Below are positions 8,272 to 25,482 of a DNA stretch of 35,546 nt, piece after piece (within the stretch, counting starts at the first letter, position 1; every line of letters starts with the position of its first letter). The position numbers were made by a program, and so were the translations under genes. This DNA comes from a virus (Duplodnaviria > Heunggongvirae > Uroviricota > Caudoviricetes): the IMG/VR virus record IMGVR_UViG_2778261064_000019. The stretch is one strand, 5' to 3'. The notes under the pieces are model-generated. The model made no database searches, had not been told where the DNA came from, and saw only the letters and a list, made by a program, of their open reading frames with translations.

Positions 8272-8282
8272 GGTTGCTTAAT

Positions 8283-8912
8283 ATGTCATGTTTTGAAACG
8301 GTTGTTGAGCTTTTCAGATATGTAGGGCGTCCTAAATTTGATGCTATTAATAATCGTTTTTCAGCAACTATTTCTTATGATGCTCATATATATGAACTCT
8401 TAGTTTCTTTGCAACCTCATACAGCGTGGGGAGAAATTGAAGAGATTGTCATTGATGATGTGGATATAGATGTTGATGATAGCCTTCCCGCTAAAGGAAC
8501 ATCAATAACACTGACAATCTCTATATCAACTGGAGCTAGTGAGTCATTTTTTATCGATATTAAAGATCTAATTCAAAAGTCTCCGATGTTAAATAGAGGT
8601 ATTTTAAGAAAGTCTTTTTACTTGGTTGAGGAAGATTTTTATTTTAATGAAGGAATGGTTGAGGGATTAGCAAAAATACCAGAACTATCTGTTTTAAAGA
8701 ATCTTTGTGATTTTATTTTATGTCTATCAAAAGTTGCACACTACAGCAATAGTAAAAGTGATGATGTATGCCATAAGTTAGTTTTCTTGAAAAATACTAA
8801 TGCTAAGTCATTACCTTTAATTATTGAAACTAATGTTGATTATTCACTTCTTTTAACAGGTATTAAGGATTTAAAAATCATCGAATCTTTTTCTGATGAA
8901 AAAAAGCTATAA
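8283..8912 (+). CDS. Hypothetical acidic protein, cargo gene 3
   Basis: ORF track starts at TTG 8274; the first ATG is at 8283, about 11 nt after the gene 2 stop. Contains acidic stretch EEIVIDDVDIDVDDS. No family recognised. Confidence 0.55.
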   Translation: MSCFETVVELFRYVGRPKFDAINNRFSATISYDAHIYELLVSLQPHTAWGEIEEIVIDDVDIDVDDSLPAKGTSITLTISISTGASESFFIDIKDLIQKSPMLNRGILRKSFYLVEEDFYFNEGMVEGLAKIPELSVLKNLCDFILCLSKVAHYSNSKSDDVCHKLVFLKNTNAKSLPLIIETNVDYSLLLTGIKDLKIIESFSDEKKL

Positions 8913-8956
8913 CGGATGATAATTATTTTGAGCGAAAAGGGATTTTCATTAATACG

Positions 8957-9538
8957 GTGGTCGATTTTCTTGAATCAATCGATGTAAAGAAACAGTTTCA
9001 TTTTTTATTCTGTGAGTGGGATGAATTTCTAAAACTATACCATAATAACCTCGGTGTATATCTTAGTGGTTTTTCATTTCATAAAGTAAGAAAGGAAGTG
9101 GCAGAGGCAGAAGCTAATTTAGCTGAGCGTTTTTCAAAAATAATGTCAGACATGATAGCTAAGCTTTTAGGTATTCCTGTTTCTTTGGTTGCTACTTTTG
9201 GCATGATAAAATTAAATACCCTGCCGGAAATGTTAGTGGTTTTTTTAGGTGTATTGCTCACGTCGATAATTATGTTTTTTATTGTAAGAAGTCAATACAC
9301 ACAGTTTAGGATGATTTGTGATGCTAAAGATATTATATTTTCCCCATTAGTGAAAAAATCTGTAGGTTATACAGAAGATTTGAAAAAATTAGTATGCAAT
9401 GCAAAGGATAATTTAGACAAAAATCAGGTCATGTTAAATCGTTACCTTCTTTTCTTTCAATGCTTATGCTGGATTCCGACAGCCTTAGGTGGTGGAATGA
9501 TCTTAATGGCTATTATGGTTCATTTAGGATTACTATAA
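8957..9538 (+). CDS. Predicted multi-pass membrane protein, cargo gene 4
   Basis: Hydrophobic segments IPVSLVATFGMI, MLVVFLGVLLTSIIMFFIV and YLLFFQCLCWIPTALGGGMILMAIMVHLGLL. Track start is a GTG at 8957, so the true start is uncertain. Stop codon overlaps the gpD stop convergently. Confidence 0.5.
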   Translation: MVDFLESIDVKKQFHFLFCEWDEFLKLYHNNLGVYLSGFSFHKVRKEVAEAEANLAERFSKIMSDMIAKLLGIPVSLVATFGMIKLNTLPEMLVVFLGVLLTSIIMFFIVRSQYTQFRMICDAKDIIFSPLVKKSVGYTEDLKKLVCNAKDNLDKNQVMLNRYLLFFQCLCWIPTALGGGMILMAIMVHLGLL

Positions 9539-11068: not shown

Positions 11069-13918
11069 TTAATCAATATCGCGCAGGCTGCTGCGGGTTC
11101 TGGCGGCATTCTGCCTTTCGCGCTTGTCCAGTTCCTGCGCCACCAGTTTCGCCAGTTGTTGTTCATTCATGCCGGGAGCAGCGTGGATGTGAATAGTGAC
11201 AGGCCCGCCGCTGGCTGCCGGTACAGAAAGGGATGCTGGCGCGAGCGGGGCGCGATTATCCGGCAGGGCGGCGATAGGGGGCATGGCGACAGCGGCGGCG
11301 CTGAGCGTCAGCCCGGCACCGGCGGCGATTAACTGCTTCGAGAGTTGCCCTACGCTGGCCAGCGCCGTTTGCGTGTTGCCCTCAATCCCGACCGCCAGCC
11401 CGTCCACGGTATAGCGGCCCATTTCGGCGAACACCCGCGACGGTGAATGAATACCGAGCTTGTCCTTAAACCAGTTGGAAATATTGCTGCCCAGATCCAG
11501 CACGCCCTGTTTAATCGCTTCCCATTTGGCAAAGATCCCCTGTTTCAGCCCTTCCATGATATTGCCGCTGATCTCGGTAAAGCGGGTGGACAGGTTACTG
11601 AAACTGTTCAGAACGTTATCCCAGACTGTGGTAAACACCGTGGACAGGTTCCAGTTGGTGAAAAAAGCAATGATGGCATTCAGGGCAGTGCTGACGGTGG
11701 TTTTAATTCCCTCCCAGATACCGGTGGCGGTAGTGGTAATGCCCGTCCAGATTTGCCCCAGAAATGCCACCACGCTGTTCCACGCCTCAGCGGTACTGGC
11801 TTTGATAGTATCCCAGTGCTGGTAAATCAGGCCGGGAAGCGTCCAGTTCAGCAGGATATTCACCAGCCCGTTCCAGCAGCCGGAGAGAAACGTTTTAATC
11901 CCTTCCCAGACGGCGCTGGTTGTGGCTTTTACACTGTTCCACGCATCGCTGCATACCTGCTTAAAACTATTCCAGAGCGCGGCGAACTTCGGCCCCAGCC
12001 AGTCCCAGTTACTCCAGATCCAGATGGCGGCACCGGCGATCAGCGCAATCACCGCCAGAATCGGGTTAGCCATCATTGCGCGGCCCAGCCAAATTACCGC
12101 TTTTCCCGCGCCTTTAAAGGCATTCGCCAGCAGCCCCAGCGCGCTGCCGCCCTTAATACCGAGCACCGACAGGCTGAGTTTTAGCGCCGCCATCGGGCCG
12201 AGGATACCGGCCAGCGTCAGGGATATGCCTCCGAGCGCCACGGCGAACGCGCCGATCGCCATGCCGATTTTCACCAGCGTGGCGGTTAATTGTGGGTTGG
12301 CCTTCATCCATGCGCCGATGGACTGTAAAACGCCGGTTATGCGTTGGGTAATACTGCGCAACGGGCTGTCAACTGATTCGAACATCTCAATACCGAGATC
12401 TTCCCACGCCGAGTCAAGATTCTGGAGATCACCCTTCATATTATCGGCCATCGTTTTGGCAACTTTGCCAGCGGTACCGAGGGAGGCTTTCACCTGTTCG
12501 GCATAGGCTTCAATACGCTGCGACGGATCGAGTGACGCCTGTTTGTCGAGCAGTTCCATCATCGCGGAAGAGGCTTCCACACCGAAAATATCCTTGATGT
12601 AGGACATTTTCTTCACGTTGCCGACGCCGCCGATCCCTTGCTTCTCAAACGCGGCGGAGATTTCTGCCAGTAGCTGCGGCATCTCTTTCATTTTTCCGGT
12701 GCTGTCCGCCACCGAGGCTTTCAGGTCTTCCAGCGCGGCGGCGGCTTTTTTCGGCTGTGATGCCAGCCGCAACAGCGCCATACGTAAGGATGTACCTGCC
12801 TGCGCTCCCTGAATCCCCACGTTACCCAGCATCCCGACCATCGCTGACATGGTTTCAAAGTCCTGCCCCGCAGCCTGTGCAGCCGGGCCGACGTATTTCA
12901 TGGTTTCACCCAGCATCTGCAGGTCGGTATTAGACGTAGTGAACGTGAAGGTGAGCGCGTCAGCCATGCGTTGCATCTGGTCTGCCGGGATTTTATAGGC
13001 GCTCTGAATATTGGAGGCGATATCGGAAACCTGAGCAAGCTGCGTGTCCATCCCCGCCGCTTTCGCCAGATCCAACATGTGCGGCATCGCCTTTTCGATT
13101 TTATCTGGCGTGTAGCCCGCCATTGCCAGAAAACCCTGCCCCTGCGCCACATCGTTGGCGGTAAAGCTGGTTGATGCGCCTAAATCTCGCGATTGCGTTC
13201 GCAGCCGTTTCAGTTCATCAGAGTTTTTATCGGTGCGTGTTAACGCCTGTACGCGCGACATGCCCACGTCGAAATCGTAGCCGGGCATCATTACCCGCGC
13301 GCTGCCGTAAAGCATACCCACGCCGGTGGCCGTCGTGGTTGCGCCGAATCCGGCCAGTTTGTTGCGGGCGTCCATTGCTCCTGCGTAGCTATTTTTTGCT
13401 GCGTTCATCCGCTGCTGCTGCCGGTTTAGCCGTTCCAGTCGCCTGCGCTGTTCCTCCATGCTACGGTTAGCACTCTCCAGTCGTTGCCGTAGTTCACTCT
13501 GGCGCTGGCTGAGATTACGGGTATCGATACCAGCGTTGCGCAGTACGGTGCGGCTATGCTGCTGGGCCTGAGTAAGCTGACCATGCCGTTCTTTAAGTCG
13601 CCGCGCCTCCTGCTGAGCACGTTCAAACTCCCGACGCATCGCAGCCGTGGGCGCAGTGCTGCTTTGCATTGCCGTGGCCAGCGCCCGGACGCGATCCTGC
13701 GCGCTTTTAAGCTGATTGCCGGTGACGGCGACATCGCGCGCCAGCTTGCGGTAGCCATCGATTTGTCCGGCCTGTTTGTTCAGGTCTTTGACCTGCTGCT
13801 GCGCCGCTTTCAGTGCTCTGGCGGTGTCGCTGCTGCTTTGCGTGACGGCTTTTAGCGGACGGGTGATTTTATCTACGGCGCTGAGTAGTACCTGTAAACG
13901 AAGGTTTTGTGTGCTCAT
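11069..13918 (-). CDS. T: Tail tape measure protein (gpT-like)
   Basis: 949-aa ORF, Ala/Gln-rich with coiled-coil-like N-terminus and hydrophobic central segments, located after the E/E' chaperone genes as in P2. Confidence 0.85.
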   Translation of the reverse strand: MSTQNLRLQVLLSAVDKITRPLKAVTQSSSDTARALKAAQQQVKDLNKQAGQIDGYRKLARDVAVTGNQLKSAQDRVRALATAMQSSTAPTAAMRREFERAQQEARRLKERHGQLTQAQQHSRTVLRNAGIDTRNLSQRQSELRQRLESANRSMEEQRRRLERLNRQQQRMNAAKNSYAGAMDARNKLAGFGATTTATGVGMLYGSARVMMPGYDFDVGMSRVQALTRTDKNSDELKRLRTQSRDLGASTSFTANDVAQGQGFLAMAGYTPDKIEKAMPHMLDLAKAAGMDTQLAQVSDIASNIQSAYKIPADQMQRMADALTFTFTTSNTDLQMLGETMKYVGPAAQAAGQDFETMSAMVGMLGNVGIQGAQAGTSLRMALLRLASQPKKAAAALEDLKASVADSTGKMKEMPQLLAEISAAFEKQGIGGVGNVKKMSYIKDIFGVEASSAMMELLDKQASLDPSQRIEAYAEQVKASLGTAGKVAKTMADNMKGDLQNLDSAWEDLGIEMFESVDSPLRSITQRITGVLQSIGAWMKANPQLTATLVKIGMAIGAFAVALGGISLTLAGILGPMAALKLSLSVLGIKGGSALGLLANAFKGAGKAVIWLGRAMMANPILAVIALIAGAAIWIWSNWDWLGPKFAALWNSFKQVCSDAWNSVKATTSAVWEGIKTFLSGCWNGLVNILLNWTLPGLIYQHWDTIKASTAEAWNSVVAFLGQIWTGITTTATGIWEGIKTTVSTALNAIIAFFTNWNLSTVFTTVWDNVLNSFSNLSTRFTEISGNIMEGLKQGIFAKWEAIKQGVLDLGSNISNWFKDKLGIHSPSRVFAEMGRYTVDGLAVGIEGNTQTALASVGQLSKQLIAAGAGLTLSAAAVAMPPIAALPDNRAPLAPASLSVPAASGGPVTIHIHAAPGMNEQQLAKLVAQELDKRERQNAARTRSSLRDID

Positions 13919-14088
13919 GATTCAACACCGCTGCGCTGGCGGGCCTGCTCCCGCCAGTAAAGGGTTTCGCCAAGGGTTAATGCGTCCATCGCGGATAGTG
14001 GCCAATGGAAGATGACGGCTATGTCGCCTTGAGCCTCCTCTATGCGTCCGGGGTATCCGTTGCTTCCGGCGAGGTCTGCGGCAAAAAA
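13915..14088 (-). other. Programmed -1 frameshift site (T_TTT_TTG at 14082..14088) and E' extension giving the E+E' fusion
   Basis: Minus-strand mRNA reads GGU UUU UUG. The -1 frame downstream stays open for about 57 codons (FFAADLAGSNGYPGRIEEAQGDIAVIFHWPLSAMDALTLGETLYWREQARQRSGVES) and ends at a TGA overlapping the tape measure ATG. Confidence 0.7.
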
Positions 14089-14336
14089 CCGACAAGCGCC
14101 GTACCGAAAGCCGTCAGGTCGATAAAATCCAGTTGCGCCACCTCATGCTTATTCAGCGGCGGTGCGGTGATGCGCGGTAGAACGCTGGTGAGTGCATCTA
14201 CGTTAAGGCTTAACAGCTCCACCAGACTGACACCGCGCAGGTCGCCGCCCAGTGGTTTACGGATCTGGAACTCGACAAATTCGGTTTCGCCGCGTTTCAG
14301 GGGAGTATTCAGGGTAACGGTTTTACGTTCGCTCAT
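14040..14336 (-). CDS. E: Tail assembly chaperone gpE (zero-frame product)
   Basis: 98-aa ORF between the tail tube and tape measure genes. Contains a TTTTTTG slippery site near its 3' end. Confidence 0.8.
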   Translation of the reverse strand: MSERKTVTLNTPLKRGETEFVEFQIRKPLGGDLRGVSLVELLSLNVDALTSVLPRITAPPLNKHEVAQLDFIDLTAFGTALVGFLPQTSPEATDTPDA

Positions 14337-14345
14337 GGTTCATCC

Positions 14346-14861
14346 TTACAGGCCAATGGCGCGACGTGCGCCAGCCAGACGGTCTTTGCCGTCGATATTT
14401 TCAATAAAGTTCACGGTGTCGATTTCGACGATGGTTTCACCGTTGACGCTCTCTTTGTAATAGGTACAAAGGGTGCTGATTTTGGTCGCGGAGTTCTCGC
14501 CCTGCTTGTATTCGCCGCGATCCAGCTCTTTGTGGCGACCACGCACCACGATTTCCACCGCGTCGTACTCTTCGCTGTCTTCACGCTGGATAGCGCCGGA
14601 GAATCGCAGCATCACGCCGCTGATCTTCGTCCAGCCGATCTGCCGCAGCGCCAGCAGCTCATAGCCGCCGATTGACCATTCCACGCTGAGCGCCTCGTCA
14701 TCCAGTCCCAGATCGACATGCGCCGCGCCGTTCATGCCGCCGCCGCGATAGGCTTCCAGCTTGCGCGTCAGCTTTGCCGGGGTGAAGGACTCCACCTGTG
14801 CCAGATAGATATCGCCCTCGTTAAACAGGTTGAGGTATTTCAGTTTGCTGGGTAGTGCCAT
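14346..14861 (-). CDS. FII: Tail tube protein (gpFII-like)
   Basis: 171-aa ORF, size and position as P2 FII, immediately after the sheath gene. Confidence 0.85.
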   Translation of the reverse strand: MALPSKLKYLNLFNEGDIYLAQVESFTPAKLTRKLEAYRGGGMNGAAHVDLGLDDEALSVEWSIGGYELLALRQIGWTKISGVMLRFSGAIQREDSEEYDAVEIVVRGRHKELDRGEYKQGENSATKISTLCTYYKESVNGETIVEIDTVNFIENIDGKDRLAGARRAIGL

Positions 14862-14875
14862 GGTGCGTTCTCCTG

Positions 14876-16054
14876 TTACACGGTGGTGGCGATGGATTCA
14901 GCCAGATTGACCAGATAGCGGTCAGTGATGCGCTGGCGGAACATCAGGTTTTCCAGCGGCGGCACCGGGGTGTAGTCGTAGTCGATATACGCTTTACCCG
15001 CTTTCAGGATGTCCGGCGTGTTGGCGGCGGGATCGAACCATGCGGAGCCGTCGACGATGTAGCCGTTGCCTTTCAGTTCGCGGAATTTGGCGTTCACGCC
15101 TTCGATAATGTCGCGGAACAGAGAAGCGTGTTGCGGTTTATCTATCGCCCAGAAGTGGGCGTCGGCGATGGTATCCGCCAGCACCTGCGCGGTGCGGGTG
15201 TAGTTCTCAAAGGCAAACAGCGGATCGGTGCTGCAGGTGCGCGATCCCCAGAAGCGATAGCCGGCGTTGCAAATCAGCGTGGTGACGTCGTGGCTGTTGA
15301 GGTAATCCGAATCGGTGGCGGTGGACTGCAGATCCCAGAATACGCTGCGGGAAATGCCGGTCACGCCGTTGACGTCAACGTTGGACAGCGTTTTATGCCA
15401 GCCGGTTTCTTCATCAATTTTTGCACGCAGGCCCACGGCGCGGGCGGTGGCGTATAGGGTACGTTCGGCGGCAGCCTGTGTATCAAAGCCGACAAAATCC
15501 GGCCAGATAATCATCGCCTCTCGCGCACCTAGCTGATCGCGATACAGCACCGCCTCTTCTTTGGTCTGCGCGCCGAACGCCGACAGATAGCTGAAGGCGC
15601 GAAGCTGTTGTGAAATGCTGACCAGTTCGGTGGCGATGGGCAGAGAATCCAGCCCTGGTACCGCCAGAATGCGCGGTTTTATTTTCAGTTTGGTTTGCGA
15701 GTCCAGTAGCGCCTTCATGCCGGTGTATTTCCCGGCTGGCGTGCTGCCGCCGATGATATTGGCGGTGGTTTCGGCGGCGGAGTCACCTTCGGCTACGCGC
15801 ACGGCGACCACCACCGGCTGCGTCTGGTCGGCGATGGCATCCAGAGAGTGTGCCAGCGTACCGCTATCACCGGCTTTACCCAGCGCAGATCGCACGTCGG
15901 TTAACAGTACTGGGGTATCAAGGGGAAAGGTTTTTTCATCGGCATCTGAACCGGTACAGACAATGCCGATCACGGCAGTGGAAATGGTACGGATCGGGCG
16001 CACGCCTTCATTGATTTCAATAACGCGCGCGCCGTGGTGGTAGTCGGTTGCCAT
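14876..16054 (-). CDS. FI: Tail sheath protein (gpFI-like)
   Basis: Start set at ATG 16054 (MATDYHHGARVIEINEG..., GGAGG 8 nt upstream), matching the P2 FI N-terminus as recalled. The ORF track extends to 16141. Confidence 0.85.
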   Translation of the reverse strand: MATDYHHGARVIEINEGVRPIRTISTAVIGIVCTGSDADEKTFPLDTPVLLTDVRSALGKAGDSGTLAHSLDAIADQTQPVVVAVRVAEGDSAAETTANIIGGSTPAGKYTGMKALLDSQTKLKIKPRILAVPGLDSLPIATELVSISQQLRAFSYLSAFGAQTKEEAVLYRDQLGAREAMIIWPDFVGFDTQAAAERTLYATARAVGLRAKIDEETGWHKTLSNVDVNGVTGISRSVFWDLQSTATDSDYLNSHDVTTLICNAGYRFWGSRTCSTDPLFAFENYTRTAQVLADTIADAHFWAIDKPQHASLFRDIIEGVNAKFRELKGNGYIVDGSAWFDPAANTPDILKAGKAYIDYDYTPVPPLENLMFRQRITDRYLVNLAESIATTV

Positions 16055-16124
16055 GAGGCGAGCCTCCATCAGGTCAATAAATGACGATGGTGGCACAGAG
16101 CGAAAAGGGCGGTGACGGCTTCCA

Positions 16125-16147
16125 CTTGTAACCACTGGCACTACAAG
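16125..16147. promoter_or_regulatory. Dyad CTTGTA-N11-TACAAG upstream of FI (candidate Ogr-responsive late promoter element)
   Basis: Inverted repeat with imperfect extended arms (GGCTTCCACTTGTA / TACAAGCAGAAGCG, 16117..16155), 70-100 bp upstream of the FI start. Same half-sites and spacing at three other late-operon positions. Confidence 0.5.
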
Positions 16148-16159
16148 CAGAAGCGGTTT

Positions 16160-16918
16160 TTAATTCAGGATAATCAGTTCTGATGTGGTGCTGGCTGGCT
16201 TTCCACCTACGGTATAGCGAATCCCTACCGTTGAGAATGTCAGGCCGTGGAAGATATCGCGCATTTCCGGGATGTCGTTAACCGAGATAATCATCCGGCC
16301 CTGCATGGTGCGCGCCAGCTCTGCCATACGCTGGTACTGCTCAAGGCCAAATGGTACGCCGTAGCCTTCGGTTTTCCAGTATGGTGGGTCGCAGTAGAAC
16401 AGGGTATGCGGGCGGTCATAGCGGCGAATACAGTCGGCCCAGTCCAGATTTTCAATGCAGACGCGCGCCAGCCGCAGATGGGCGGCGGATAAATCCTCTT
16501 CCATACGCAGCAGGTTCAGGCGCGGCGGTGAGGTGGTGGCGGTACCGAACGTGCGACTTTCCACTTTGCCGCCGAATGCCAGCTTTTGCAGATAGTAGAA
16601 GCGCGCCGCGCGCTGGATATCGGTCAGCGTTTCTTCCGGGGTGATCTGGAGCCAGCGGTACATTTCGCGGCTGACCAGCGACCATTTAAACTGGCGGACA
16701 AACTCTTCTAAATGGTGCTGAAGTACGCGGTAGAGGTTGGTAACGTCACCGTTGATATCGTTCAGCACCTCGGCCTGTGCGGGCTGTTTCATAAAGAACA
16801 ACGCTGCCGCCCCGCAGAACGGTTCAACGTAGCAGCGGTGTTTGGGAAACAGTGGCAGAATGTGTTTTGCCAGCCTGCGCTTACCGCCGATCCACGGAAT
16901 AACGGGTAACGTATTCAA
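16160..16918 (-). CDS. DNA N6-adenine methyltransferase (Dam-like), second copy
   Basis: 252-aa ORF with YVEPFCGAAALF AdoMet motif and DPPY motif (FYCDPPYWKTEGYG). Sits between the tail fibre assembly gene and FI, the position of the P2 Z/fun locus. Confidence 0.8.
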   Translation of the reverse strand: MNTLPVIPWIGGKRRLAKHILPLFPKHRCYVEPFCGAAALFFMKQPAQAEVLNDINGDVTNLYRVLQHHLEEFVRQFKWSLVSREMYRWLQITPEETLTDIQRAARFYYLQKLAFGGKVESRTFGTATTSPPRLNLLRMEEDLSAAHLRLARVCIENLDWADCIRRYDRPHTLFYCDPPYWKTEGYGVPFGLEQYQRMAELARTMQGRMIISVNDIPEMRDIFHGLTFSTVGIRYTVGGKPASTTSELIILN

Positions 16919-17382
16919 ATTGTCAATTTTCCAGACCGACTGCTGACCAACGCATACAGCAGATTAGGAGACCAGCGCCAACTATCGCGCAGGTGCAGAA
17001 ATTCGGCGCAGAACTCGCTGCAAAACAGGCGTTCCTGTTTACCCTGACTGAGTAACACAAAACCCATGGCGCCCAGCCAGTCGTAACCTTTATCGTCGTG
17101 CTGACGAAAAAAGGTTTCCAGTGCCAGCGGATCGGCGTTGATCGGGAGTAAATCCCATTTCTCAATCGGCAGCGGCATTCGTTTGCTGCGCACGCCTTTA
17201 TCCCGTACCGATGATGAGTAACAGATAAACAGGCCATCCGGCAGGCGTTCGACCAGTTCGCAGTGAGAGTAAGGGCCGCGCGTGACCTGTCGCGTCAACC
17301 AGTCGGAGAGCCGGGCAAGGCTGAAAAAGCGTTCAGCCCGGCCACGGTAGAACGCCATGTAAACCTGACTCATGGTTGCCAT
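16915..17382 (-). CDS. Hypothetical protein (Z/fun-position cargo)
   Basis: 155-aa ORF translationally coupled to the neighbours (4-bp overlap with Dam, 13-bp overlap with the upstream gene). Cys/His-containing segments (CELVERL, LFCSEFCAEFLH); no family recognised. Confidence 0.5.
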   Translation of the reverse strand: MATMSQVYMAFYRGRAERFFSLARLSDWLTRQVTRGPYSHCELVERLPDGLFICYSSSVRDKGVRSKRMPLPIEKWDLLPINADPLALETFFRQHDDKGYDWLGAMGFVLLSQGKQERLFCSEFCAEFLHLRDSWRWSPNLLYALVSSRSGKLTI

Positions 17383-18077
17383 CCTGATGAGTAGTCGTAA
17401 CCCATAACCGCCTGCACCTCCGTCAACGCTTCAACGGCGGCAATATGCTGCTGGGCAGCGGCGAACAGGCGCATATCGTGCGCCATTGTTTCGGTTTCAA
17501 ACCGGGCGGCGATCTCGTTGGTTAGTTCAATCAGGTTGTGATTTTTGGTCTGCCACATTAAGCCTGCCGGTATTTGTTTAGCCACGCCCATTTTGGTGAG
17601 CGAGAGCTGCTGGATGCGGCTGTTAGCGTCGCTGTGGAAATGGTGATTATCGATGATGATGTAGTCAGCGGTGATTCGATCGCGATACTGCTTTATTTCT
17701 GCCACCTTTGCCTGTCGGGCTTTTTCGATATCGGGCTGCCAGCGTTTGCCGTCCCAACGGACAAAGGCGTTATCGGGCTTCAGCAGAGTGACGTTATCCG
17801 GCAATGGCCCCAGATGATGAAGCTGTACCTCACTGCCCGCATCGGTATCAAACGCGGTTTTACCGCGATGATCTTCTACCGCAAGCCATGTTTCTCCGTT
17901 GAATGTCAGGGCAAAGCCGCTCTGGCATTCGGGCGGTTCGATAGTGGTACAGCATTCCGGTAAGCCGGTGTTGGGGGCGATATAGGCGTCGCTGACGCCG
18001 ATAAATTCCTGAGTATCTGCCGCGTAGTTAAAGATGCGCAGGGTTTGCGGTTCGTCGGAAAATGCGAATGTGCTCAT
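17370..18077 (-). CDS. Putative tail fibre assembly protein (gpG position)
   Basis: 235-aa ORF directly after the tail fibre gene with a 4-bp overlap. Assignment is by position only. Confidence 0.5.
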
Positions 18078-19339
18078 GCCAGCCTCACGATATAGTTGAA
18101 AGCGATATTTTTAACGGTGTTTTCGGTGTTCCCGGCGGCGTTCACCGTAATAGTGTGGCTGTGGGAACCCAAGGCGATAGCGTGGTTATGCGCGCCGATA
18201 GTCAGCGAATGGGTATGAGCGCCGATGGCTACTGTGTGAGTATGGACACCGTCTGTACTGGTTCTGAATTTGTAGTTATCCCAGTCTGTGTCTGCAGACC
18301 CCTGATTATTACGGGTACTGTCGAAGTAACCGTGACGTCCACCGCTGGCTTCACCCCATCCGCTGTCGTGGTTGTGAGCACCGGCTGACGCTGTTGATTT
18401 TGTCCCGTAGTCAAACGCGCTGGTATTTTTAGTACCCAAATCGGTGGAACTGGCAGTTTTAGTGCCTAAATCTGTGTTAGTGGCGCTGGCTGTGTGACTA
18501 TGAGATTTAACGCCATCCTGTTCCTGAGACAGTATCGAGCGTCCGCTGGCGGGTTTCCCCTTGATTGTCCAGCCGCGCATATCCGGGATTACCCCAGAGG
18601 GGTAAGCGATTGCCAGTTTAGGGTAGGCGGTTTTATTGAAGGACTGACCGACCATCAGGGCGTAGCCGCTGGGGATTGCATCGGATGACCACGGTATCGG
18701 CGTGCCGACCGGACAGGTTTCCGCCGCCAGCGCTTTGTCTACTGCCGCTTTCACCGCCTTGGGCGTGGCGGCCAGTGTTTCGCTGATGCTGTTGGTCGCA
18801 CTGCTTAATTGAGTAAAACCTTTGGCAGTTAACGTGGCGTCAGGATGGTTACGGGACTGCACGTGGCACGTCAGGCTTTCATCCACATACTGTCTTGTTG
18901 CCAGCACCACGGCAGGGTCGATTTTCAGCTCCACGTTTTCCGTATGGGAGACAATCAGCACCATGCGGATAATCTGCGTGCGGCCCGAACCTTCGATTAA
19001 CTGCGGCTTGTAGGTTGGCGGGCAGTTGCCGACGGCAATCAGCCGGTCGTGCTCGTCGTACAGGCCAATTTCTCTGATCCACCATCCGCCTACATCCTCC
19101 GGTAGTACCTGTTCGGCAATAATCTGGTTGGGGTTGTTAGGGTCAATACTGAGCGTATTCAGCGGCGCACGTCGGCGTTCGTTGATTAACCGGGTTTGGC
19201 CAGTCTCCGGTGTTGGCAGGTTACCGTTTCCGTCGCCCACGGCCATTTGCGTCAGATGAAGAGGTGAACCCTGTGCGGTGGCGGTCGCCAGCGCGGATTC
19301 GCCGGTAGTGGTTAATAGCGTGAAATAGGTAGCGCTCAT
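18074..19339 (-). CDS. H: Tail fibre protein (gpH-like)
   Basis: 421-aa ORF with a gpH-like N-terminus ([20 protein letters not shown]...MAVGDGNG) and C-terminal Gly/His-rich repeats (TDLGTK x2, GAHTHS / GAHNHA / GSHSHT). Confidence 0.75.
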
Positions 19340-19950
19340 GGGGCGATCCTTAGCGTATCAATCAGATGCAGCGCAGCCCCGCGGTAGTTACGGCCCACGC
19401 TGTATACATGTTCGGGAATAAAGGGATAAACGGTGAGCGTATCGCCGGTATAGTTCGTCGCGCTGAACCAGACGTATCCGTTGCTCTGCAGGCTGATCGC
19501 CAGTCCGATTAAGTGGCGTGAACAGGGTTTGGCATCATCGATCAGGCGCTCCAGCTCCACATACATCTGCTCGGTGATGCCCTGTTCGCGCACGCCGACC
19601 TCCAGTGCGAAGGTGCCGGGAATACCTTCCGGGCGCAGTTGCCACCATTCGGTTACCCGGATAAGGAAACCGAGCGGTTCCACCGCACGTTGCAGTGCGC
19701 CGATGGTGCCTTTGTGCTGATGGATGTAGAAAGAGGCGGCAATCACCTGCCGCTTGGTATCGACTGGCCAGTTTTCATCCCAGCGGTCAACGGAAAACGC
19801 CCATGCCAGATAAGGCAACAGCGCGGCGGGGCAGCTACCCGGTTGCCACAAGCTACGCAGCGGGACTGGCACTTGTTCAGTCAGGCTGCCGGTTTGTGCC
19901 AGATTCTGCTCCAGCGGGCTGGCATTGTTGGGGAGCAGGGAGCTATTCAT
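19336..19950 (-). CDS. I: Baseplate/tail protein gpI-like
   Basis: Start set at Met 24 of the track ORF ([15 protein letters not shown]...), matching the P2 I N-terminus as recalled. Contains [17 protein letters not shown]. Confidence 0.8.
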
Positions 19951-20854
19951 CGCTTCCCCCGATGGCAATTTTCCATCCGGTGCAGTAGCTGGCCTGCGTT
20001 TTGTTGATAATGACATCAACGGCAGGGGAGAGCAGTTCTACGCGCTGAACACCGGTGACATGCAGTGCGGCGTAAATCGCGCTGCGGCGAATATCACGCC
20101 CGATCCGATGCTGGTCATTAACGTAGCTTTTTAGCCGCTGCTCGGCGGCCTGCCGAATGGGTTCCTGCTCCGGGCCAGGATAGCAATAAAGTACGGCATC
20201 AATCTGATATGGGATCACTTCGGCGGACTGAATGGTTGGGCGATCACCTACCGGACGAATATCAATATCGTTCAGGGCGGAATCGACTATCGCCAGCAGT
20301 TCTGCGCTGGCCAGCCCGTTGCCTTCGCGGGAGAGTACCGACACGGTGACGTAACAAGGATAGGGGCTGATAGCGGAGACGTCTGCGATACGCCCGTCTG
20401 CGCTGCGGGCGTGATATTCGTAGGCGGCGGTCGGGCCTGCGACGGACAGACCTTCAAACGCCTGCTGTGCGCGCATTCGTAAATCGCTGTCGGATTCATA
20501 AACCGGATCAACGGGCGGTATCGCCGTACTGTCTCCGGGCGAAATTTGCAGGCGAAAAACCTTAAAGTTAGCGACCAGATTATCCAGATCGCGCCCGGCG
20601 GCATGGGCCAGCATATTAGCAACGGCGGCTTCATTGATGCGTACCCGCAGCGCCATCTCTAAGTAAGTATTTTCCTGCAACAGCTTGACGAAGGGTTCTG
20701 ATTCATAGCCCAGTGTGCGGGTAACTTCTGCTTGCTGTTCGGCAGGATACAGGCTGATAAAGCGCTGCTTGCGGGCGGTTAGCAGGGTTTCAAAATCGAC
20801 TGTTTCCACCACATCGGGGATCGGTAATTGGCTTAAATCGGTCAGTGCGCTCAT
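19943..20854 (-). CDS. J: Baseplate assembly protein gpJ-like
   Basis: Start set at internal Met (MSALTDLSQLPIPDV...), overlapping the gpW stop. Size about 303 aa, as P2 J. Confidence 0.8.
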   Translation of the reverse strand: MSALTDLSQLPIPDVVETVDFETLLTARKQRFISLYPAEQQAEVTRTLGYESEPFVKLLQENTYLEMALRVRINEAAVANMLAHAAGRDLDNLVANFKVFRLQISPGDSTAIPPVDPVYESDSDLRMRAQQAFEGLSVAGPTAAYEYHARSADGRIADVSAISPYPCYVTVSVLSREGNGLASAELLAIVDSALNDIDIRPVGDRPTIQSAEVIPYQIDAVLYCYPGPEQEPIRQAAEQRLKSYVNDQHRIGRDIRRSAIYAALHVTGVQRVELLSPAVDVIINKTQASYCTGWKIAIGGSDE

Positions 20855-21168
20855 GGACGTCTCCTGTCGATTGGAATGGAGAATGTCCACGGCTGGCCGG
20901 GGATATCGGTACGTTCGGCTTCAATAGTGACGCTAAGATCGGCATTATCCGCAGCAAAGTCCACACCGATAATCTCGATGCGGGGTTCCCAGCGCGTCAG
21001 CGCCATGACCACTGCCGACATCACCCGTAGCCGGGTAGCGCCATCGTTGGGCTGGTCGATCAGGTTGCCGATCAGTGAGCCATAATCGCGACGCATCACG
21101 CGCGTACCTACCGGCGTGGTCAAAATATCTTTTACGGATTGCTTAATGTGCAACTCGTCGCTTAACAC
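20851..21168 (-). CDS. W: Baseplate protein gpW-like
   Basis: 105-aa ORF between V and J, size and position as P2 W. Confidence 0.8.
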   Translation of the reverse strand: MLSDELHIKQSVKDILTTPVGTRVMRRDYGSLIGNLIDQPNDGATRLRVMSAVVMALTRWEPRIEIIGVDFAADNADLSVTIEAERTDIPGQPWTFSIPIDRRRP

Positions 21169-21199
21169 TCTGCCGGTTTCGCGTTCATACCGAGGTACA

Positions 21200-21799
21200 T
21201 TACTGCGGCCCTCCGGTATTGCTACCCCCGCGCTCTACGCCTGTGTGCGTGTGGGTATGAACGGTGACGCCGTTGGAGGTAAAACTGCCGCCGCTGTGGG
21301 TGTAAGCACCTTTAAGCGTGCCGCCTTTTTTAACCGACAGCGTGGCGGTTTCCAGATGCTGGGTGCAGACGACGAGCGGTGTATCCAGCGTGACGCGGGT
21401 GCTGGCTTCGACCAGTGCGGTCTTGATGCCGGTAGCTTTTAACGTGCTGGAGCGCGGATCATATTCAATCACCGCACCATCGGGGTAAACGCTATGGTGA
21501 ACCTGTTCATCCAGCAGCGGGGCGGGGTTGGCGTCAGAGTAAATGGCCGGAAGTGCCACGGCGGTGGTTAACTCACCGCTTAAACAGAGCAGTAACACCT
21601 GTTCGCCTGTTGATGGCCGCCACCACGTCCGGGCATCACCGGCGCGTAGCGTCAGCCACGGTATCCAGTTGGTGGTCAGTTCACCAGTGTGAATGCGTAC
21701 TCGATCGCCCTTCACCTCTTCAACGGTGCCGGTACGGATCAGGTTTTCAATGCGCCGGTGCAGCTCGGCGAGGTTGGCTGGGTGGTTTGCGTCGCTCAT
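21200..21799 (-). CDS. V: Baseplate spike/assembly protein gpV-like
   Basis: 199-aa ORF, first gene of the V-W-J-I-H string, preceded by a dyad element. Confidence 0.8.
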   Translation of the reverse strand: MSDANHPANLAELHRRIENLIRTGTVEEVKGDRVRIHTGELTTNWIPWLTLRAGDARTWWRPSTGEQVLLLCLSGELTTAVALPAIYSDANPAPLLDEQVHHSVYPDGAVIEYDPRSSTLKATGIKTALVEASTRVTLDTPLVVCTQHLETATLSVKKGGTLKGAYTHSGGSFTSNGVTVHTHTHTGVERGGSNTGGPQ

Positions 21800-21843
21800 G
21801 CCGGAATCATTGGGATTCGCGGGCGAAGAGGGAAGGGCTAAGG

Positions 21844-21866
21844 CTTGTAGGATAATGGGCTACAAG
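21844..21866. promoter_or_regulatory. Dyad CTTGTA-N11-TACAAG upstream of gpV (candidate late promoter element)
   Basis: Inverted repeat CTTGTAG-N9-CTACAAG about 50-65 bp upstream of the gpV ATG. Confidence 0.5.
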
Positions 21867-21869
21867 TAA

Positions 21870-21891
21870 AACGCCCCTGAGTAGGGGCGTT
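21870..21891 (-). terminator. Possible hairpin terminator after hicB
   Basis: Stem AACGCCCCT / AGGGGCGTT with a 4-nt loop just downstream of the hicB stop on the minus strand. The following run is only weakly T-rich (TTACTTG). Confidence 0.35.
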
Positions 21892-21905
21892 GAACGAAAA
21901 AGAGC

Positions 21906-22241
21906 TTAACCGTGCGCAGCCTTCATCAGTGTATCGTTAATCCACTGGTTAACGCTTTTACCGGAGACTTCTGCCGCAACGTTAATGGCAGAGTGAATTT
22001 CAGGTGGAATACGCAGGCTGATTTTTCCGCTGGCCGGACGCAACGGCTCCCGGCCCCGTTCCTCGCAGTAAGCCAGATAGTCGTCTACCGCCTCTTCAAA
22101 CGCTTTACGCAGATCGGCAACATTATCGGCATGAAAGCCAATGACATCCCGAATGCCTGCAACGTGACCAACAATGCATTGATCTTCATCGCTGTATTCA
22201 ATTTTTGCGGCATAGCCTCTATATGTCATGGTATTCATCAT
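21906..22241 (-). CDS. hicB: HicB-family antitoxin
   Basis: 111-aa ORF 4 bp-overlapped with the upstream hicA-like gene. C-terminal RHH-like segment (KISLRIPPEIHSAINVAAEVSGKSVNQWINDTL). Confidence 0.75.
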   Translation of the reverse strand: MMNTMTYRGYAAKIEYSDEDQCIVGHVAGIRDVIGFHADNVADLRKAFEEAVDDYLAYCEERGREPLRPASGKISLRIPPEIHSAINVAAEVSGKSVNQWINDTLMKAAHG

Positions 22242-22501
22242 GGTGTTACCCCTACAGCTTCAAGGAATGTTCTGGCATCGCGAACCTGATAGGCTTTCGC
22301 TTCTTTTTCCGGGTGTGGACGATGAAATGAAGCCACAACCTGATTAATTTCAAACCTGACGCGGGAACCGTTTCCTTCCGTAGCAATAGCCCCCAAAGCA
22401 ATAAATAAGGCTTCTATTTTTCGCCATTCCAGCGTGACAGGTGTTGGCGTAGAAAAAACAGCTTGTAAGGTTTTTTTATGTTTGGCGCTTAACGTATTCA
22501 T
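22238..22501 (-). CDS. hicA: HicA-family toxin (mRNA interferase)
   Basis: 87-aa ORF with GS..RF.......FHRPHP.KE pattern consistent with the HicA fold, in hicA-hicB order. Confidence 0.65.
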   Translation of the reverse strand: MNTLSAKHKKTLQAVFSTPTPVTLEWRKIEALFIALGAIATEGNGSRVRFEINQVVASFHRPHPEKEAKAYQVRDARTFLEAVGVTP

Positions 22502-22550
22502 ACAGGGTATTTTCCATAAGTTATTTTATTCTTCCGCCAAGATATAATGA

Positions 22551-22571
22551 TGATATCATTTTTTGATATCA
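22551..22571. promoter_or_regulatory. Tandem palindromes TGATATCA (22551..22558, 22564..22571) in the hicA promoter region
   Basis: Two identical 8-bp palindromes separated by TTTTT, overlapping candidate -35/-10 elements for the minus-strand hicAB transcript. Confidence 0.4.
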
Positions 22572-22573
22572 TT

Positions 22574-23020
22574 TCAAGTCAGGAAGTGAACGATTAGCGC
22601 CTCTATCTTTCGCACATCCTCCGCCGAAACCCCCAGCAACTGCCTTTGTGCGTAATCCACCTCCAACCCGTAGCGATTTACCCGATCGCGCAGGCCATAC
22701 TGATGAACGGCGGCCATATGTCGAACGCTGCTGAGAAACGAAATGGTTACACCCTGCCCATCGCCTTTTCCTTTCATATAGCGTGCGGTACGCAGCTTAC
22801 GGAACATCTGGCGGCGGATCTTTCCTTTTTTACTGCGTAGCTGGGGCTTACGGGGGGCGAACGATGAGCCGTCCGGGTTTTTCTGCGCGGCTATCCGCTG
22901 GCTTTGTGACTGGCGCAGGCTGCGGGCGATTTCCCGCGCCAGTTGGGTTCGGCTTGCCGGGGAGAGCTTTACGAGCAGGCCATCGGCCCAGCGGTGGAGT
23001 TGTTGCAGGTCTTCGCTCAT
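22574..23020 (-). CDS. S: Tail completion protein gpS-like
   Basis: 148-aa ORF after gpR, size and position as P2 S. Confidence 0.75.
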   Translation of the reverse strand: MSEDLQQLHRWADGLLVKLSPASRTQLAREIARSLRQSQSQRIAAQKNPDGSSFAPRKPQLRSKKGKIRRQMFRKLRTARYMKGKGDGQGVTISFLSSVRHMAAVHQYGLRDRVNRYGLEVDYAQRQLLGVSAEDVRKIEALIVHFLT

Positions 23021-23478
23021 CAGGTGCTCACAATCGTTTCACCGCGACAGGCGATTTCCCAGCCGTTGTAACCGCTTTCTGGCTGCTGGTCGTTACAGTG
23101 CTTTGCTTCCAGACCACCGTCGCGCTGGCGAACAATGACGCGCTCGGTCAGCGCCAGTTTGATGCTGATATCGTAGCTTTGATGGTCGATGGCTTCGGCC
23201 TCAAACTGAAACGCCTGCTCGCGCAGGTCGCTATTGGCGAAGGCTTCCTGCTGGTGAAGCGACATCCAGCCGACCAGTAGCACCATCAGCGTATCGGGAT
23301 CGGCGGCGTAGTCGGTGATCAACAGTTCCAGCGTGTACTGGTATTCAAAACTGGTGCTGCGCCCTGCGGTGGCGACGATCCGGCCCTTATTGATAAAGAT
23401 CCGCAGCGCGTCCGGGTTCTGCTGTAGATGCGGGACGCTGGCGGCCAGCAGTTCACGGATGAGCTGCGCTTTGTGCAT
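23020..23478 (-). CDS. R: Tail completion protein gpR-like
   Basis: 152-aa ORF after the spanin genes, size as P2 R. Confidence 0.7.
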   Translation of the reverse strand: MHKAQLIRELLAASVPHLQQNPDALRIFINKGRIVATAGRSTSFEYQYTLELLITDYAADPDTLMVLLVGWMSLHQQEAFANSDLREQAFQFEAEAIDHQSYDISIKLALTERVIVRQRDGGLEAKHCNDQQPESGYNGWEIACRGETIVST

Positions 23479-23728
23479 CGATACGCTCCTGACAGCTAAT
23501 CGTCATATCCACCTGCGCAGCGCACTGGTGCCACGCGTTTTCAGTGTCCAGCAGTGCGCGGCTTAAATCTTCATTACTCTGCGGTTGCAGCGCCGGAAGC
23601 TGGCAGGGCCTCAGTTTCGGGCAATTGACGGTAAGCCGCACTGCCGGTAATGGTGGTGTGCTGGTGCAGGCGGATAATATCAGCGGGCAAAGCAGTATCA
23701 GCCCATTCACGAAGCTGTTGATTTTCAC
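23453..23728 (-). CDS. lysC: o-spanin (LysC/Rz1-like lipoprotein)
   Basis: Signal peptide with lipobox (LILLCPLILSAC), Pro-rich body; start embedded out of frame in the i-spanin gene, as in P2 lysB/lysC. Confidence 0.6.
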   Translation of the reverse strand: MKINSFVNGLILLCPLILSACTSTPPLPAVRLTVNCPKLRPCQLPALQPQSNEDLSRALLDTENAWHQCAAQVDMTISCQERIDAQSAAHP

Positions 23729-24023
23729 GTTTCAGTTTCTCCAGTTGCTGATTGCGCTGCCGTAGCTGGTCATGGGCGGCGGCGGTTTGCTGTTGCAGCG
23801 TCAGGTATGCCTGCTGGTCGGCGTCGGCCTGTTGCTGGAGTTCGTCCAGTTCCCGCACTTTTGTCATCAGGGATTCGGTCAGGCTGGCAATCTGAGTGTC
23901 GGCCAGCCTGATGTGCTGCTGCTGTTCAATAAGCTGTTCCTGCTGCGTCATACGCTGCCAGTTAGTCCAGAGCAGCATCACACCGAGCAACAGCAGCGGC
24001 GCGGCTTTCATCCAGCCCATCAT
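23574..24023 (-). CDS. lysB: i-spanin (LysB/Rz-like)
   Basis: N-terminal transmembrane segment (AAPLLLLGVMLLW) followed by a Gln/Leu-rich coiled-coil. Confidence 0.65.
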   Translation of the reverse strand: MMGWMKAAPLLLLGVMLLWTNWQRMTQQEQLIEQQQHIRLADTQIASLTESLMTKVRELDELQQQADADQQAYLTLQQQTAAAHDQLRQRNQQLEKLKRENQQLREWADTALPADIIRLHQHTTITGSAAYRQLPETEALPASGAATAE

Positions 24024-24610
24024 GCTGCCGCCTTACTGAATTTTTCGAAGGCGACCGCCAGCTTAGTATCGTACTGGTTGCGTTTGTACTGTGGCCCGTT
24101 GTAGCGGCGGGCGAACTCTGGCCAGTTCTGTACCTTCATCGCGTCGTGGATCTTCGAATTGGCCTCAACAAAGCGCACGAAGGTATCAAGCTGCATCTGC
24201 TCGCTGTCGTTCATCTGTTTTTCAAAGTCGGCAGCAGAGGTGTAGCCCAGCGTTTTCCAGTGAAAGCCCATAATCTGGAACAGTCCCCAGCTTGCGCTCT
24301 CAATGGCGGCGGCGCTGTGGATCTGTTTCGCCAGATTCAGACGGTAGTGCTCACGGCTTCCGCCCTGATAGCCGCCTGCGCTCTTGTTCACCAGATCCGG
24401 GTAATTCTGCGCCAGCCGATCGGCGTCCAGTCCGTGGCTTTTTAACTGGCGGTACATGACGTGGCGTTCAAACAGAATAGCTGGGCGGCCATCGGGCAAG
24501 AAGCCGTGAGATCGGGCTTCAACCTCCTGCACTGCCTGTAATGTCGCCAGCGGGATGCCCAGATACAGCGCGGCGGCCTGCTGCTGATCATGAGTGAGTG
24601 TACGAGTCAT
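24020..24610 (-). CDS. Putative endolysin (N-acetylmuramidase-type)
   Basis: 196-aa soluble protein between the holin-like genes and the spanins; motif SWGLFQIMGFHW recalled from phage muramidase-family proteins. Confidence 0.6.
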   Translation of the reverse strand: MTRTLTHDQQQAAALYLGIPLATLQAVQEVEARSHGFLPDGRPAILFERHVMYRQLKSHGLDADRLAQNYPDLVNKSAGGYQGGSREHYRLNLAKQIHSAAAIESASWGLFQIMGFHWKTLGYTSAADFEKQMNDSEQMQLDTFVRFVEANSKIHDAMKVQNWPEFARRYNGPQYKRNQYDTKLAVAFEKFSKAAA

Positions 24611-24902
24611 GGCGTGGCTCCTTCGGGTGGTGACGTAAGGGTTTAATCAGGCTGGCGACGTTGCCGCGTGCGGCAGTCAGGCAAATCAGCAGCACGATGT
24701 TGATGGCGGTTTCGGCGATAAACACGTAGCGGTACAGGCTGAAACAAATCAGTACCGCCACTGATGCGGTGCAGCACATCAGCAGCCACGCCAGCCAGCT
24801 ATACAGCGGGCGATAGGTAGTACCGTGAACGCGGCGATAGAGGAACAGACGGATGGTAATCAGCAGGCAAATAATGGCGTTAAGGCTCAGGATTAGTTTC
24901 AT
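24588..24902 (-). CDS. Small membrane protein (putative holin/antiholin, LysA position)
   Basis: 104-aa ORF with three hydrophobic segments, located in the lysis cassette. Confidence 0.5.
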   Translation of the reverse strand: MKLILSLNAIICLLITIRLFLYRRVHGTTYRPLYSWLAWLLMCCTASVAVLICFSLYRYVFIAETAINIVLLICLTAARGNVASLIKPLRHHPKEPRHDSYTHS

Positions 24903-25288: not shown

Positions 25289-25482
25289 AGGTTGATTCGT
25301 TGACGTTCGGCGGCGGGAGCCTGTTCAGGTACGTTCACCGCCGTACCGTGCGGCAGGCGCAGCGGCAGTTCGCATAGGCGCGGGTTGTCGCGGTAAAGCC
25401 GTTCGACAATCCCGGCAGTGCGCCCGAAGGTGCGCCAGCAGAGCTGGTCGAGCGTTTCGTTTTGCAGGCTATAGACAATCAT
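25279..25482 (-). CDS. X: Tail protein X (gpX-like)
   Basis: 67-aa ORF, the same size as P2 X, heading the lysis cassette. Confidence 0.75.
   Translation of the reverse strand: MIVYSLQNETLDQLCWRTFGRTAGIVERLYRDNPRLCELPLRLPHGTAVNVPEQAPAAERQRINLWD

Follow-up and report, generated by a model that had tools for sequence, protein, structure and literature searches.

We analyzed a 35,546-nucleotide (nt) stretch of viral DNA (IMG/VR record IMGVR_UViG_2778261064_000019; hereafter the window), which is a P2-like prophage of Escherichia coli, and we focused on two minus-strand genes at positions 16160-17382, between the tail-fiber assembly (chaperone) gene and the tail sheath gene FI. A preliminary description of this locus treated the two genes, one for a Dam-like methyltransferase and one for a 155-residue protein, as an accessory cassette that could act as a pair in anti-restriction or defense. 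The best explanation of our results, which we hold with reasonable though not strong confidence, is that these are two late genes that close the tail operon at its 3' end and have separate functions, rather than one cassette. The upstream gene is tied to the tail-fiber module and encodes a predicted enzyme, and the downstream gene encodes a putative DNA methylase of a known kind.

Two overlapping genes follow the tail-fiber assembly gene

The two genes are as follows (aa, amino acids).

16915..17373, minus strand: small gene, putative enzyme of 152 aa (the open reading frame extends to 17382, which gives 155 aa); phrog_1128
16160..16918, minus strand: methylase gene, 252 aa, TTG start; PF02086, phrog_56

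Both open reading frames (ORFs) lie where they had been placed and have strong homologs, which identifies them as real genes. The small ORF matches phrog_1128 at 1e-53 and has 40 database homologs, down to 1e-98, and the methylase ORF matches Pfam PF02086 at 6e-29 and phrog_56 at 2e-97. No antisense or alternative-frame ORF of the interval has a Pfam match or represents a credible gene, and no Rfam model matches the interval near threshold. The most likely start codon of the small gene is the ATG at 17373, for a product of 152 aa, because this codon forms an ATGA overlap with the chaperone stop codon, is preceded by AGGA 8 nt upstream, and agrees with RefSeq WP_000084748.1 and with the N-termini of the homologs. 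Residue numbers in this text follow the 155-aa form. At its other end, the small gene shares the TTGA at 16915-16918 with the methylase gene, whose TTG start overlaps the small-gene stop codon; this confirms the translational coupling proposed earlier. The small gene is therefore overlapped at both ends, by the chaperone stop and by the methylase start, such that chaperone, small gene and methylase are chained.

The small gene is linked to the tail-fiber module

A scan of viral contigs identified at least 579 relatives of the small protein, and we retrieved 80 loci, in which the small gene nearly always follows a fiber gene and a chaperone-like gene of ~200-260 aa. The stop codon of the upstream ORF lies at -11 to +5 nt from the start of the small gene in 77 of 81 loci, with a 4-nt overlap in 52 of them. 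This upstream ORF matches the chaperone of the window directly in 56 of the 81 loci, and when 19 unrecognized upstream ORFs were checked, up to 11 matched a single PHROG family of tail-fiber-assembly or tail proteins. The loci span P2-like and Mu-like phages, siphoviruses, and a tail-only cluster of E. coli. The gene order in the Mu-like Haemophilus phage SuMu is fiber, chaperone, small gene, Com and methylase. In a Salmonella locus that carries STM4198, the small gene likewise follows fiber and chaperone genes, and this locus adjoins yjbD and rluF, as does the tail-only cluster of E. coli S10. An E. coli Mu-like prophage has the order chaperone, small gene, Com and Mom, and the small gene also follows fiber and chaperone genes in the Moraxella Mcat2 and Pseudomonas stutzeri pAN siphoviruses. 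Among 5426 E. coli genomes, 202 have a DNA homolog of the small gene and 210 have one of the DUF4376 chaperone end; in the E. coli matches that were sampled, these two lie directly side by side. Together, these results place the small gene directly 3' of, and coupled to, the fiber assembly gene across phage types. We are highly confident that the small gene is linked to the tail-fiber module, and we could not find this tight association described in the literature.

The S10 cluster (NZ_CP010229.1; positions 13024-28783 of locus L093) is a headless Mu-type tail cluster located between lysC and yjbD, and the small gene is its last gene. The cluster contains genes for a Mor activator, holin, transglycosylase, sheath, tube, tape measure, baseplate, fiber and DUF4376 chaperone in addition to the permuted NlpC/P60 gene, and the catalytic residues of the small protein are intact. 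We found no capsid, portal, terminase, integrase or replication genes within 13024-28783, and by its gene content the cluster is a candidate R-type tailocin. Because the small gene is kept in a cluster that packages no DNA, its function appears to be tied to the tail or to tail production and not to DNA methylation. Our literature search found no paper on this cluster; the element described in a paper on an E. coli ST131 "tailocin" was considered as a match and is a different one.

Several observations weigh against a role for the small protein in fiber function. In jumbo phage RP12, the homolog of the small gene stands alone amid unrelated genes. P2 and most P2-like prophages lack the small gene, and ~1349 E. 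coli genomes match the sheath/tube end of our query compared to the 202 that carry the small gene. Such rarity among P2-like prophages indicates that the gene is not generally needed for fiber assembly. Moreover, the SuMu proteomics paper is silent on the homolog in its main text, and our search turned up no proteomic data on any homolog. The preliminary description had named a conserved structural tail component as the identity that would overturn its proposal. The small protein is indeed a conserved member of the tail-fiber module; a structural role is approached by these results, not proven.

The small protein is predicted to be a circularly permuted NlpC/P60 enzyme

Structure prediction suggests that the small protein is quite probably a circularly permuted NlpC/P60 papain-like enzyme of the YiiX type. 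An AlphaFold2 model built from the homolog alignment (mean predicted local distance difference test score 84) has a papain-like core with a circular permutation, in which the His is N-terminal to the Cys. A strand opens at the His and a helix opens at the Cys, which thus occupies the helix N-terminus. The Cys/His-containing segments noted in the preliminary description correspond to His40 (YSHCE) and Cys121 (FCSEF), both invariant in an alignment of 30 homologs. Ser56, Ser58, Arg60-Asp61, Arg65, Lys67, Trp76, Tyr100-Asp101 and Pro139 are also invariant in this alignment, and His40, Tyr100 and Cys121 are retained in every genomic context as well. Tyr100 is located 21 residues N-terminal to the Cys, and Glu42, Ser56 and Ser58 form an invariant polar cluster on one hairpin. 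When compared to the Protein Data Bank (PDB), the family profile matched 3kw0 at E 3.6e-4, with the SH and CSEF motifs aligned. YiiX and BcPPNE have a catalytic set of Cys, His, a polar residue and Tyr (PMC3142127), and we assign the small protein to the permuted NlpC/P60 class because its Cys/His/Tyr set matches the arrangement in these two enzymes. Catalysis would use a Cys121-His40 dyad with Tyr100 in the oxyanion position.

Two results weigh against this assignment. Glu64 of BcPPNE aligns to Ser57 of the small protein, which is not invariant, and the third catalytic residue is therefore ambiguous; Glu42, Ser56 or Ser58 may take the His-orienting role of the usual Glu. In addition, the match to Pfam PF05708 (Peptidase_C92) is below threshold, and a single homolog out of 30 matches this model, at E 0.092. 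The small protein itself has no match in Pfam, NCBIfam or PADLOC and is best treated as a separate, unmodelled subfamily. Its identity to the YaeF/YiiX-like enzymes (E. coli YiiX, PDB 2if6; B. cereus BcPPNE, PDB 3kw0; PF05708) is ~15%, and these enzymes are 180-190 aa long compared to 152 aa for the small protein. The His-orienting Glu of YiiX and BcPPNE is replaced by a variable Ser, with the invariant Glu42, Ser56 and Ser58 nearby. Moreover, the small protein is phage-borne and fixed to tail-fiber cassettes, a context not described for YiiX. We found no functional study of the family in the literature, nor one on STM4198 or HI1522. What is new here is a distinct, unmodelled subfamily of a known enzyme superfamily, whereas the type of the neighboring methylase is already known.

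The family is large. A profile search returned 4083 clusters at E ≤ 1e-3, the weakest of which may be neighboring YiiX-type families, and 1729 clusters at ≤ 1e-10. Nearly all of the best 150 representatives are standalone proteins of ~135-190 aa, and the few longer proteins among these 150 have no consistent fusion partner that could serve as a functional clue. The small protein is basic (pI 9) and soluble; inspection of its N-terminus, which supplies a strand and a helix to the predicted fold, revealed no signal peptide or membrane segment, although no predictor was run. A family of ~4000 clusters thus has no Pfam model and carries a misleading database name. The PHROG name "enoyl-CoA hydratase/carnithine racemase-like" was rejected, as the fold is papain-like and not that of crotonase, and the label appears to be an annotation error. 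The same name is attached to phrog_1128, to SuMu gp51 (positions 3947-4468 of locus L083) and to RP12 ORF176 (positions 3995-4438 of locus L085).

In structure searches, the closest relatives were lipid-binding YiiX-type enzymes, with TseH and CHAP domains also among the matches, and all matches in the viral structure library were uncharacterized phage proteins. Tox-Act1, TseH, LRAT/PLAAT and MARTX RID, which are lipid-directed permuted NlpC/P60 proteins, are distant relatives of the small protein. Unlike them, it has no secretion, toxin-delivery or immunity context. We also considered the possibility that the small protein is a cell-wall or envelope hydrolase, either a virion-borne entry enzyme or a lysis accessory, that cuts peptidoglycan or the Lpp link. 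This model takes the canonical NlpC/P60 endopeptidases and the tail-tip domain of lambda gpK as its pattern. Membership in the NlpC/P60 superfamily, the TseH and CHAP matches, and the position of a late gene in the tail operon all speak for such an activity. However, the predicted topology is the permuted one, whose characterized members act on lipids and not on peptidoglycan (PMC3142127, PMC12994826). In addition, no export or membrane signal is apparent by inspection, the prophage already encodes a muramidase, holins and spanins, and the small gene lies among fiber genes rather than baseplate hub or lysis genes. We consider a wall hydrolase very unlikely.

The methylase is predicted to be an orphan adenine methyltransferase

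Judged by its sequence, the 252-aa protein is a D12-class (Dam-family) orphan N6-adenine DNA methyltransferase, and the family assignment made earlier stands. PF02086 matches residues 9-225 with 101.9 bits against a cut-off of 22, and the best PADLOC match is MTase_II (PDLC03253) at 1.6e-114. Motif I (ExFxGxA; EPFCGAAA, residues 32-39) and DPPY (177-180) are present in alpha order and are invariant in 11 aligned homologs, as are an N-terminal GGK and the ND pair. The catalytic motifs are thus intact, and the sequence gives no sign of the catalytic inactivity that would have spoken against the preliminary description. The enzyme shares its Pfam family, fold family and motif order (motif I, recognition region, DPPY) with E. 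coli Dam and T4 Dam (PDB 2g1p, 1q0t). Relatives in phages at 66-73% identity occur in the BcepMu-like PhiKM and KP12, Vibrio VP882, Pseudomonas B3 and Burkholderia phiE125/phi1026b. The clade of the methylase, with the B3, phiE125 and VP882 enzymes, has a wide distribution among phages.

We next consider whether the enzyme could share the specificity of Dam. Its scores are below the Dam cut-offs of NCBIfam (TIGR00571, 105.6 against 114.85; PRK10904, 62 against 441). Its alignment to EcoDam reaches E 2.7e-14 and places Pro and Glu opposite K9 and R124, the residues with which EcoDam reads GATC. Neither by score nor by contact residues is it an ortholog of EcoDam. Because these residues are not conserved and the scores fall below the cut-offs, we assign no target sequence to the methylase. 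Counts of palindromes in the prophage, including GATC, gave no hint of its specificity.

The protein is also unlikely to belong to a restriction system. There is no nuclease gene beside the methylase gene, as would be expected for a type II restriction-modification system; the neighbors encode the predicted papain-fold enzyme and the tail sheath. The small protein was considered as a restriction endonuclease partner and ruled out by its fold. PD-Lambda-5 was considered as a defense pair and rejected: the methylase matches PD-Lambda-5_B weakly (1e-15, compared to 1.6e-114 for the type II model) and the small protein does not match at all.

The most plausible reading of the methylase is an anti-restriction role, so this part of the earlier proposal survives for the methylase and is not supported for the two genes as a pair. 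The enzyme would modify replicated phage DNA before packaging, such that progeny resist restriction in the next host. Some points weigh against this role. The lack of conservation of the GATC-reading residues is one of them. E. coli has its own Dam, so a GATC enzyme would add little. A second D12 methylase is also encoded in the early region of the prophage, so that the 252-aa methylase is less obviously needed.

This second D12 methyltransferase (window 1442-2269, minus strand) is 275 aa long, retains DPPY, and is encoded beside a helix-turn-helix regulator. It is 32% identical to the 252-aa methylase, and its best PADLOC methylase model is a different one. Presumably, the two Dam-family enzymes of the prophage differ in targets or timing.

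The two genes probably do not form a functional pair

If the two genes formed one anti-restriction or defense cassette, the small protein could be a cofactor, regulator or effector of the methylase. Translational coupling in the window phage argues for such a pair, as does the frequency of methylases downstream of the small gene. Of the 60 loci with enough sequence, 18 have a D12 methylase gene that shares the strand of the small gene and lies no more than 2.5 kb downstream. This frequency is far above chance, given that a methylase homolog is carried by 676 of 50,697 phage records (~1.3%). However, we attribute the enrichment to position, because both genes end the tail operon and the modification module of Mu-like phages follows the fiber genes.

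The remaining 42 of the 60 loci have no downstream methylase. The overlap between the small gene and the methylase is found only in the window lineage (L003), and elsewhere the two are separated by 147-1467 nt. A Com-like zinc-ribbon gene occupies the gap in L055 and in SuMu, the two Mu-like cases examined, which implies that the two genes are regulated separately in these phages; elsewhere Mom takes the place of the methylase. In other loci, the small gene is followed by FI, Mom, RlaP, glycosyltransferases, acetyltransferases, or the end of the prophage. Conversely, the closest homologs of the methylase are found in other phage contexts with no small gene, where they stand alone beside lysis genes, after gpD, or behind Com. 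Retention of the small gene in the DNA-less S10 cluster also argues against a pair. Finally, no PADLOC defense-system model matches the small protein, and the suggested defense role thus finds no support for this protein.

Together, these results do not support a functional pair or an exchangeable two-gene cassette: the small gene tracks the tail-fiber genes, and the methylase follows it in a minority of loci. The small gene is demonstrably independent of the methylase, and we regard a joint cassette as highly improbable. We conclude that the variable cargo site is the slot 3' of the small gene, which itself lies on the conserved side of the boundary. Adjacency in a phage cargo slot is not proof of a functional pair.

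The methylase slot resembles those of Mu-like phages and P2

The locus occupies the position of P2 Z/fun, as proposed, between the tail-fiber assembly gene G and FI in Pfam, PHROG and RefSeq gene order. The flanking genes are given below.

18074..19339, minus strand: tail-fiber gene, P2 H-like, the first of the fiber cassette; PF12571 at 2e-62, PF03406, PF07484
17370..18077, minus strand: tail-fiber assembly (chaperone) gene, with a Caudo_TAP N-terminal domain and a DUF4376 C-terminal domain
14876..16054, minus strand: tail sheath gene FI, 392 aa from the ATG at 16054, which is also the RefSeq start; PF04984, PF17482, PF22671; phrog_23

Tail fiber, tail-fiber assembly gene and sheath FI thus flank the interval in P2 order, and FI is the downstream boundary of the slot. 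Z/fun is cited as a defense locus (PMC13586616), and the slot is variable among P2-like phages. The window slot shares the map position of Z/fun between G and FI. It does not share the gene family: tblastn of the small protein against the 50,697 phage records returned 25 records, and P2 was not among them. The window genes also appear to be of the late-operon type, compared to the lysogen-expressed exclusion genes of Z/fun.

A modification gene in last position, after the tail-fiber genes, is common to the Mu com-mom, FluMu, SuMu, B3 and KS5 modules and to the window methylase. B3 ORF48 and the non-specific Hia5/Hin1523 enzymes sit at the mom position of Mu-like phages (PMC3299994), and in the Burkholderia P2-like phage KS5, Com and a methylase (gp20/gp21) lie between the chaperone and FI (PMC3091744). 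As predicted for the window methylase, the Mu-type modification genes are expressed late, and the role ascribed to them is protection of phage DNA from restriction. B3 ORF48, which shares 66% identity with the window methylase, was reported not to be retrieved by Hia5 searches (PMC3299994); the window methylase itself falls outside the Hia5 family and has no chemical relation to Mom. The slot holds Com and a Hia5-type methylase in FluMu and SuMu, com-mom in Mu, and a methylase without Com in the window. Unlike the Com-regulated modules, the window methylase is coupled to the upstream enzyme gene through the TTGA overlap, which leaves no room for Com; it is accordingly not a Com-regulated mom-type gene. 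The methylase is therefore of a known kind, and its only unusual trait is this Com-free, overlap-coupled expression.

Possible functions of the small protein

In the reading that we favor, the small protein would be the product of a conserved third gene in a cassette of fiber, fiber chaperone and enzyme. Permuted NlpC/P60 enzymes have hydrophobic S1 pockets, and the characterized members use fatty-acyl amides, phospholipids or lipidated lysines (PMC3142127, PMC12994826). Because YiiX, BcPPNE, TseH, PLAAT and RID are its structural relatives, we propose that the small protein could be a thiol enzyme, either an acyl-hydrolase or a transferase, whose target is an amide or ester linkage in a hydrophobic substrate. 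The substrate might be the fiber/chaperone complex, or the lipidic receptor environment of the fiber, such as lipopolysaccharide or lipoprotein. Any specific choice of substrate is doubtful.

An extension of this model is that the small protein is an unrecognized active third component of the receptor-binding modules of contractile tails and siphoviruses, needed for the full activity of phages or tailocins with such a chaperone. The enzyme could act in one of two ways. As an acyl hydrolase or transferase bound to the fiber or chaperone, it would remodel lipid A, lipooligosaccharide or lipoprotein at the adsorption site; alternatively, it would acylate or trim the fiber itself. We consider this extension speculative and rather unlikely. 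The cassette of fiber and chaperone is the unit swapped to retarget phages and tailocins, and the third gene travels along with it. If the enzyme matters for fiber function, then its omission could explain failed fiber transplants, and enzymatic chemistry would be added to a module thought to be purely structural.

The small gene could instead be a lysogenic-conversion or exclusion moron that changes lipid metabolism or the surface of the host and might, for instance, mask the receptor used by the linked fiber. In this model, the gene would lie beside the fiber genes only because the site tolerates insertions. T5 carries receptor-blocking genes beside its receptor-binding genes. The slot behind the chaperone is a known cargo site, with macro-domain genes there in Gifsy-1 and SEN4/5, and what follows the small gene varies greatly (glycosyltransferases, acetyltransferases, RlaP, Mom and methylases). 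However, morons usually have their own promoter and terminator, and the small gene shows no promoter. Its start overlaps the chaperone stop by 4 nt in most of the loci (52/81), its GC content equals that of the tail genes, and in E. coli it co-occurs nearly one-to-one with one chaperone type. We therefore view a moron as an improbable identity for the small gene. An anti-defense isopeptidase that strips ubiquitin-like or other lysine-linked host modifications from tail fibers is another conceivable activity, which we consider most improbable, although it would account for the location of the gene in the fiber cassette. The closest structural relatives are lipid-binding YiiX-type enzymes and not deconjugases, such host systems are rare in comparison with a family of this size (4083 clusters), and the small gene is retained in a chromosomal tail-only cluster.

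Both genes may be transcribed from a late promoter

Four dyads with the pattern TGTA-N11-TACA are present in the window (no strand assigned).

16127..16145: dyad TGTAACCACTGGCACTACA, 14 nt 3' of the methylase stop and centered ~82 nt ahead of the FI start
21846..21864: dyad TGTAGGATAATGGGCTACA, upstream of gene V
25557-25575: dyad between a group of hypothetical genes and the tail-protein-X/lysis genes
30692-30710: dyad between O and P

Only 0.25 occurrences of this pattern are expected in the window, and none of 100 shuffles reached four. Three of the four dyads are directly upstream of late operons. The pattern resembles what we take to be the Ogr-dependent late-promoter dyad of P2-type phages with one additional spacer base (13 compared to 12, from TGT to ACA). 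The classic P2 late pattern TGT-N12-ACA is not enriched in the window and has no site upstream of FI. The dyad at 16127..16145 is proposed to be an Ogr-type late-promoter element for the FI operon, and that at 21846..21864 is proposed to serve the V-W-J-I-H-G operon as its late promoter and would then also drive the small gene and the methylase gene. From the fiber-assembly gene to the methylase stop, we detected no sigma-70-like promoter and no terminator on the minus strand; a single weak promoter-like site was located within the beginning of H. We infer that the small gene and the methylase gene are the last two cistrons of the late V operon, although the motif-based nature of the promoter assignment weighs against this arrangement. 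Translation of the small gene would be coupled to that of the chaperone, such that the enzyme is made late, alongside the fiber proteins. The methylase gene has a TTG start and no usable Shine-Dalgarno sequence; its translation probably depends on termination-reinitiation at the end of the small gene and would give a low level of enzyme.

The prophage and its other variable regions

The window prophage is inserted beside guaA. A 4.6-kb query spanning the locus matches RefSeq chromosome NZ_CM148325.1 at 99.9% identity over 87% of its length, and the whole fiber-to-sheath stretch is present in 4 of 5426 complete E. coli genomes. By RefSeq annotation, the prophage begins with the integrase, an early region (helix-turn-helix regulator, D12 methylase, DUF7673 and toprim protein) and Ogr. 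These are followed by a low-GC island, D-U-T-E-FII-FI, the small gene and methylase gene, G-H-I-J-W-V, and HicAB, and then by S-R, lysis genes, X, a few small genes, L-M-N-O and P-Q.

The fiber gene at 18074-19339 (421 aa) differs from its counterpart in a nearly identical prophage of strain 24A16CRGN010, where it encodes 553 aa (positions 23275-24936 of locus L002). Identity between the two prophages ends inside the fiber gene, at about window position 18790. This position is a recombination breakpoint, and the stretch from the fiber C-terminus through the chaperone, small enzyme gene and methylase to the sheath remains a single block.

The low-GC island (window 6157-9538, plus strand) has 28-35% GC compared to ~57% for the prophage and comprises five genes between gpD and Ogr. 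They encode a helix-turn-helix regulator, a DUF6037 protein, a 382-aa nucleoid-associated protein of the NA37 type, and two further ORFs of 212 and 193 aa, which have no match in Pfam or PADLOC. The island looks like a cargo or defense candidate in a slot separate from 16160-17382. The late region also holds two toxin-antitoxin modules. HicA/HicB lies between S and V (window ~21906-22500, minus strand), and the second module, a Doc-family toxin gene preceded by small ORFs, has the head-completion gene on one side and the small genes upstream of X on the other (window ~27000-27520, plus strand).

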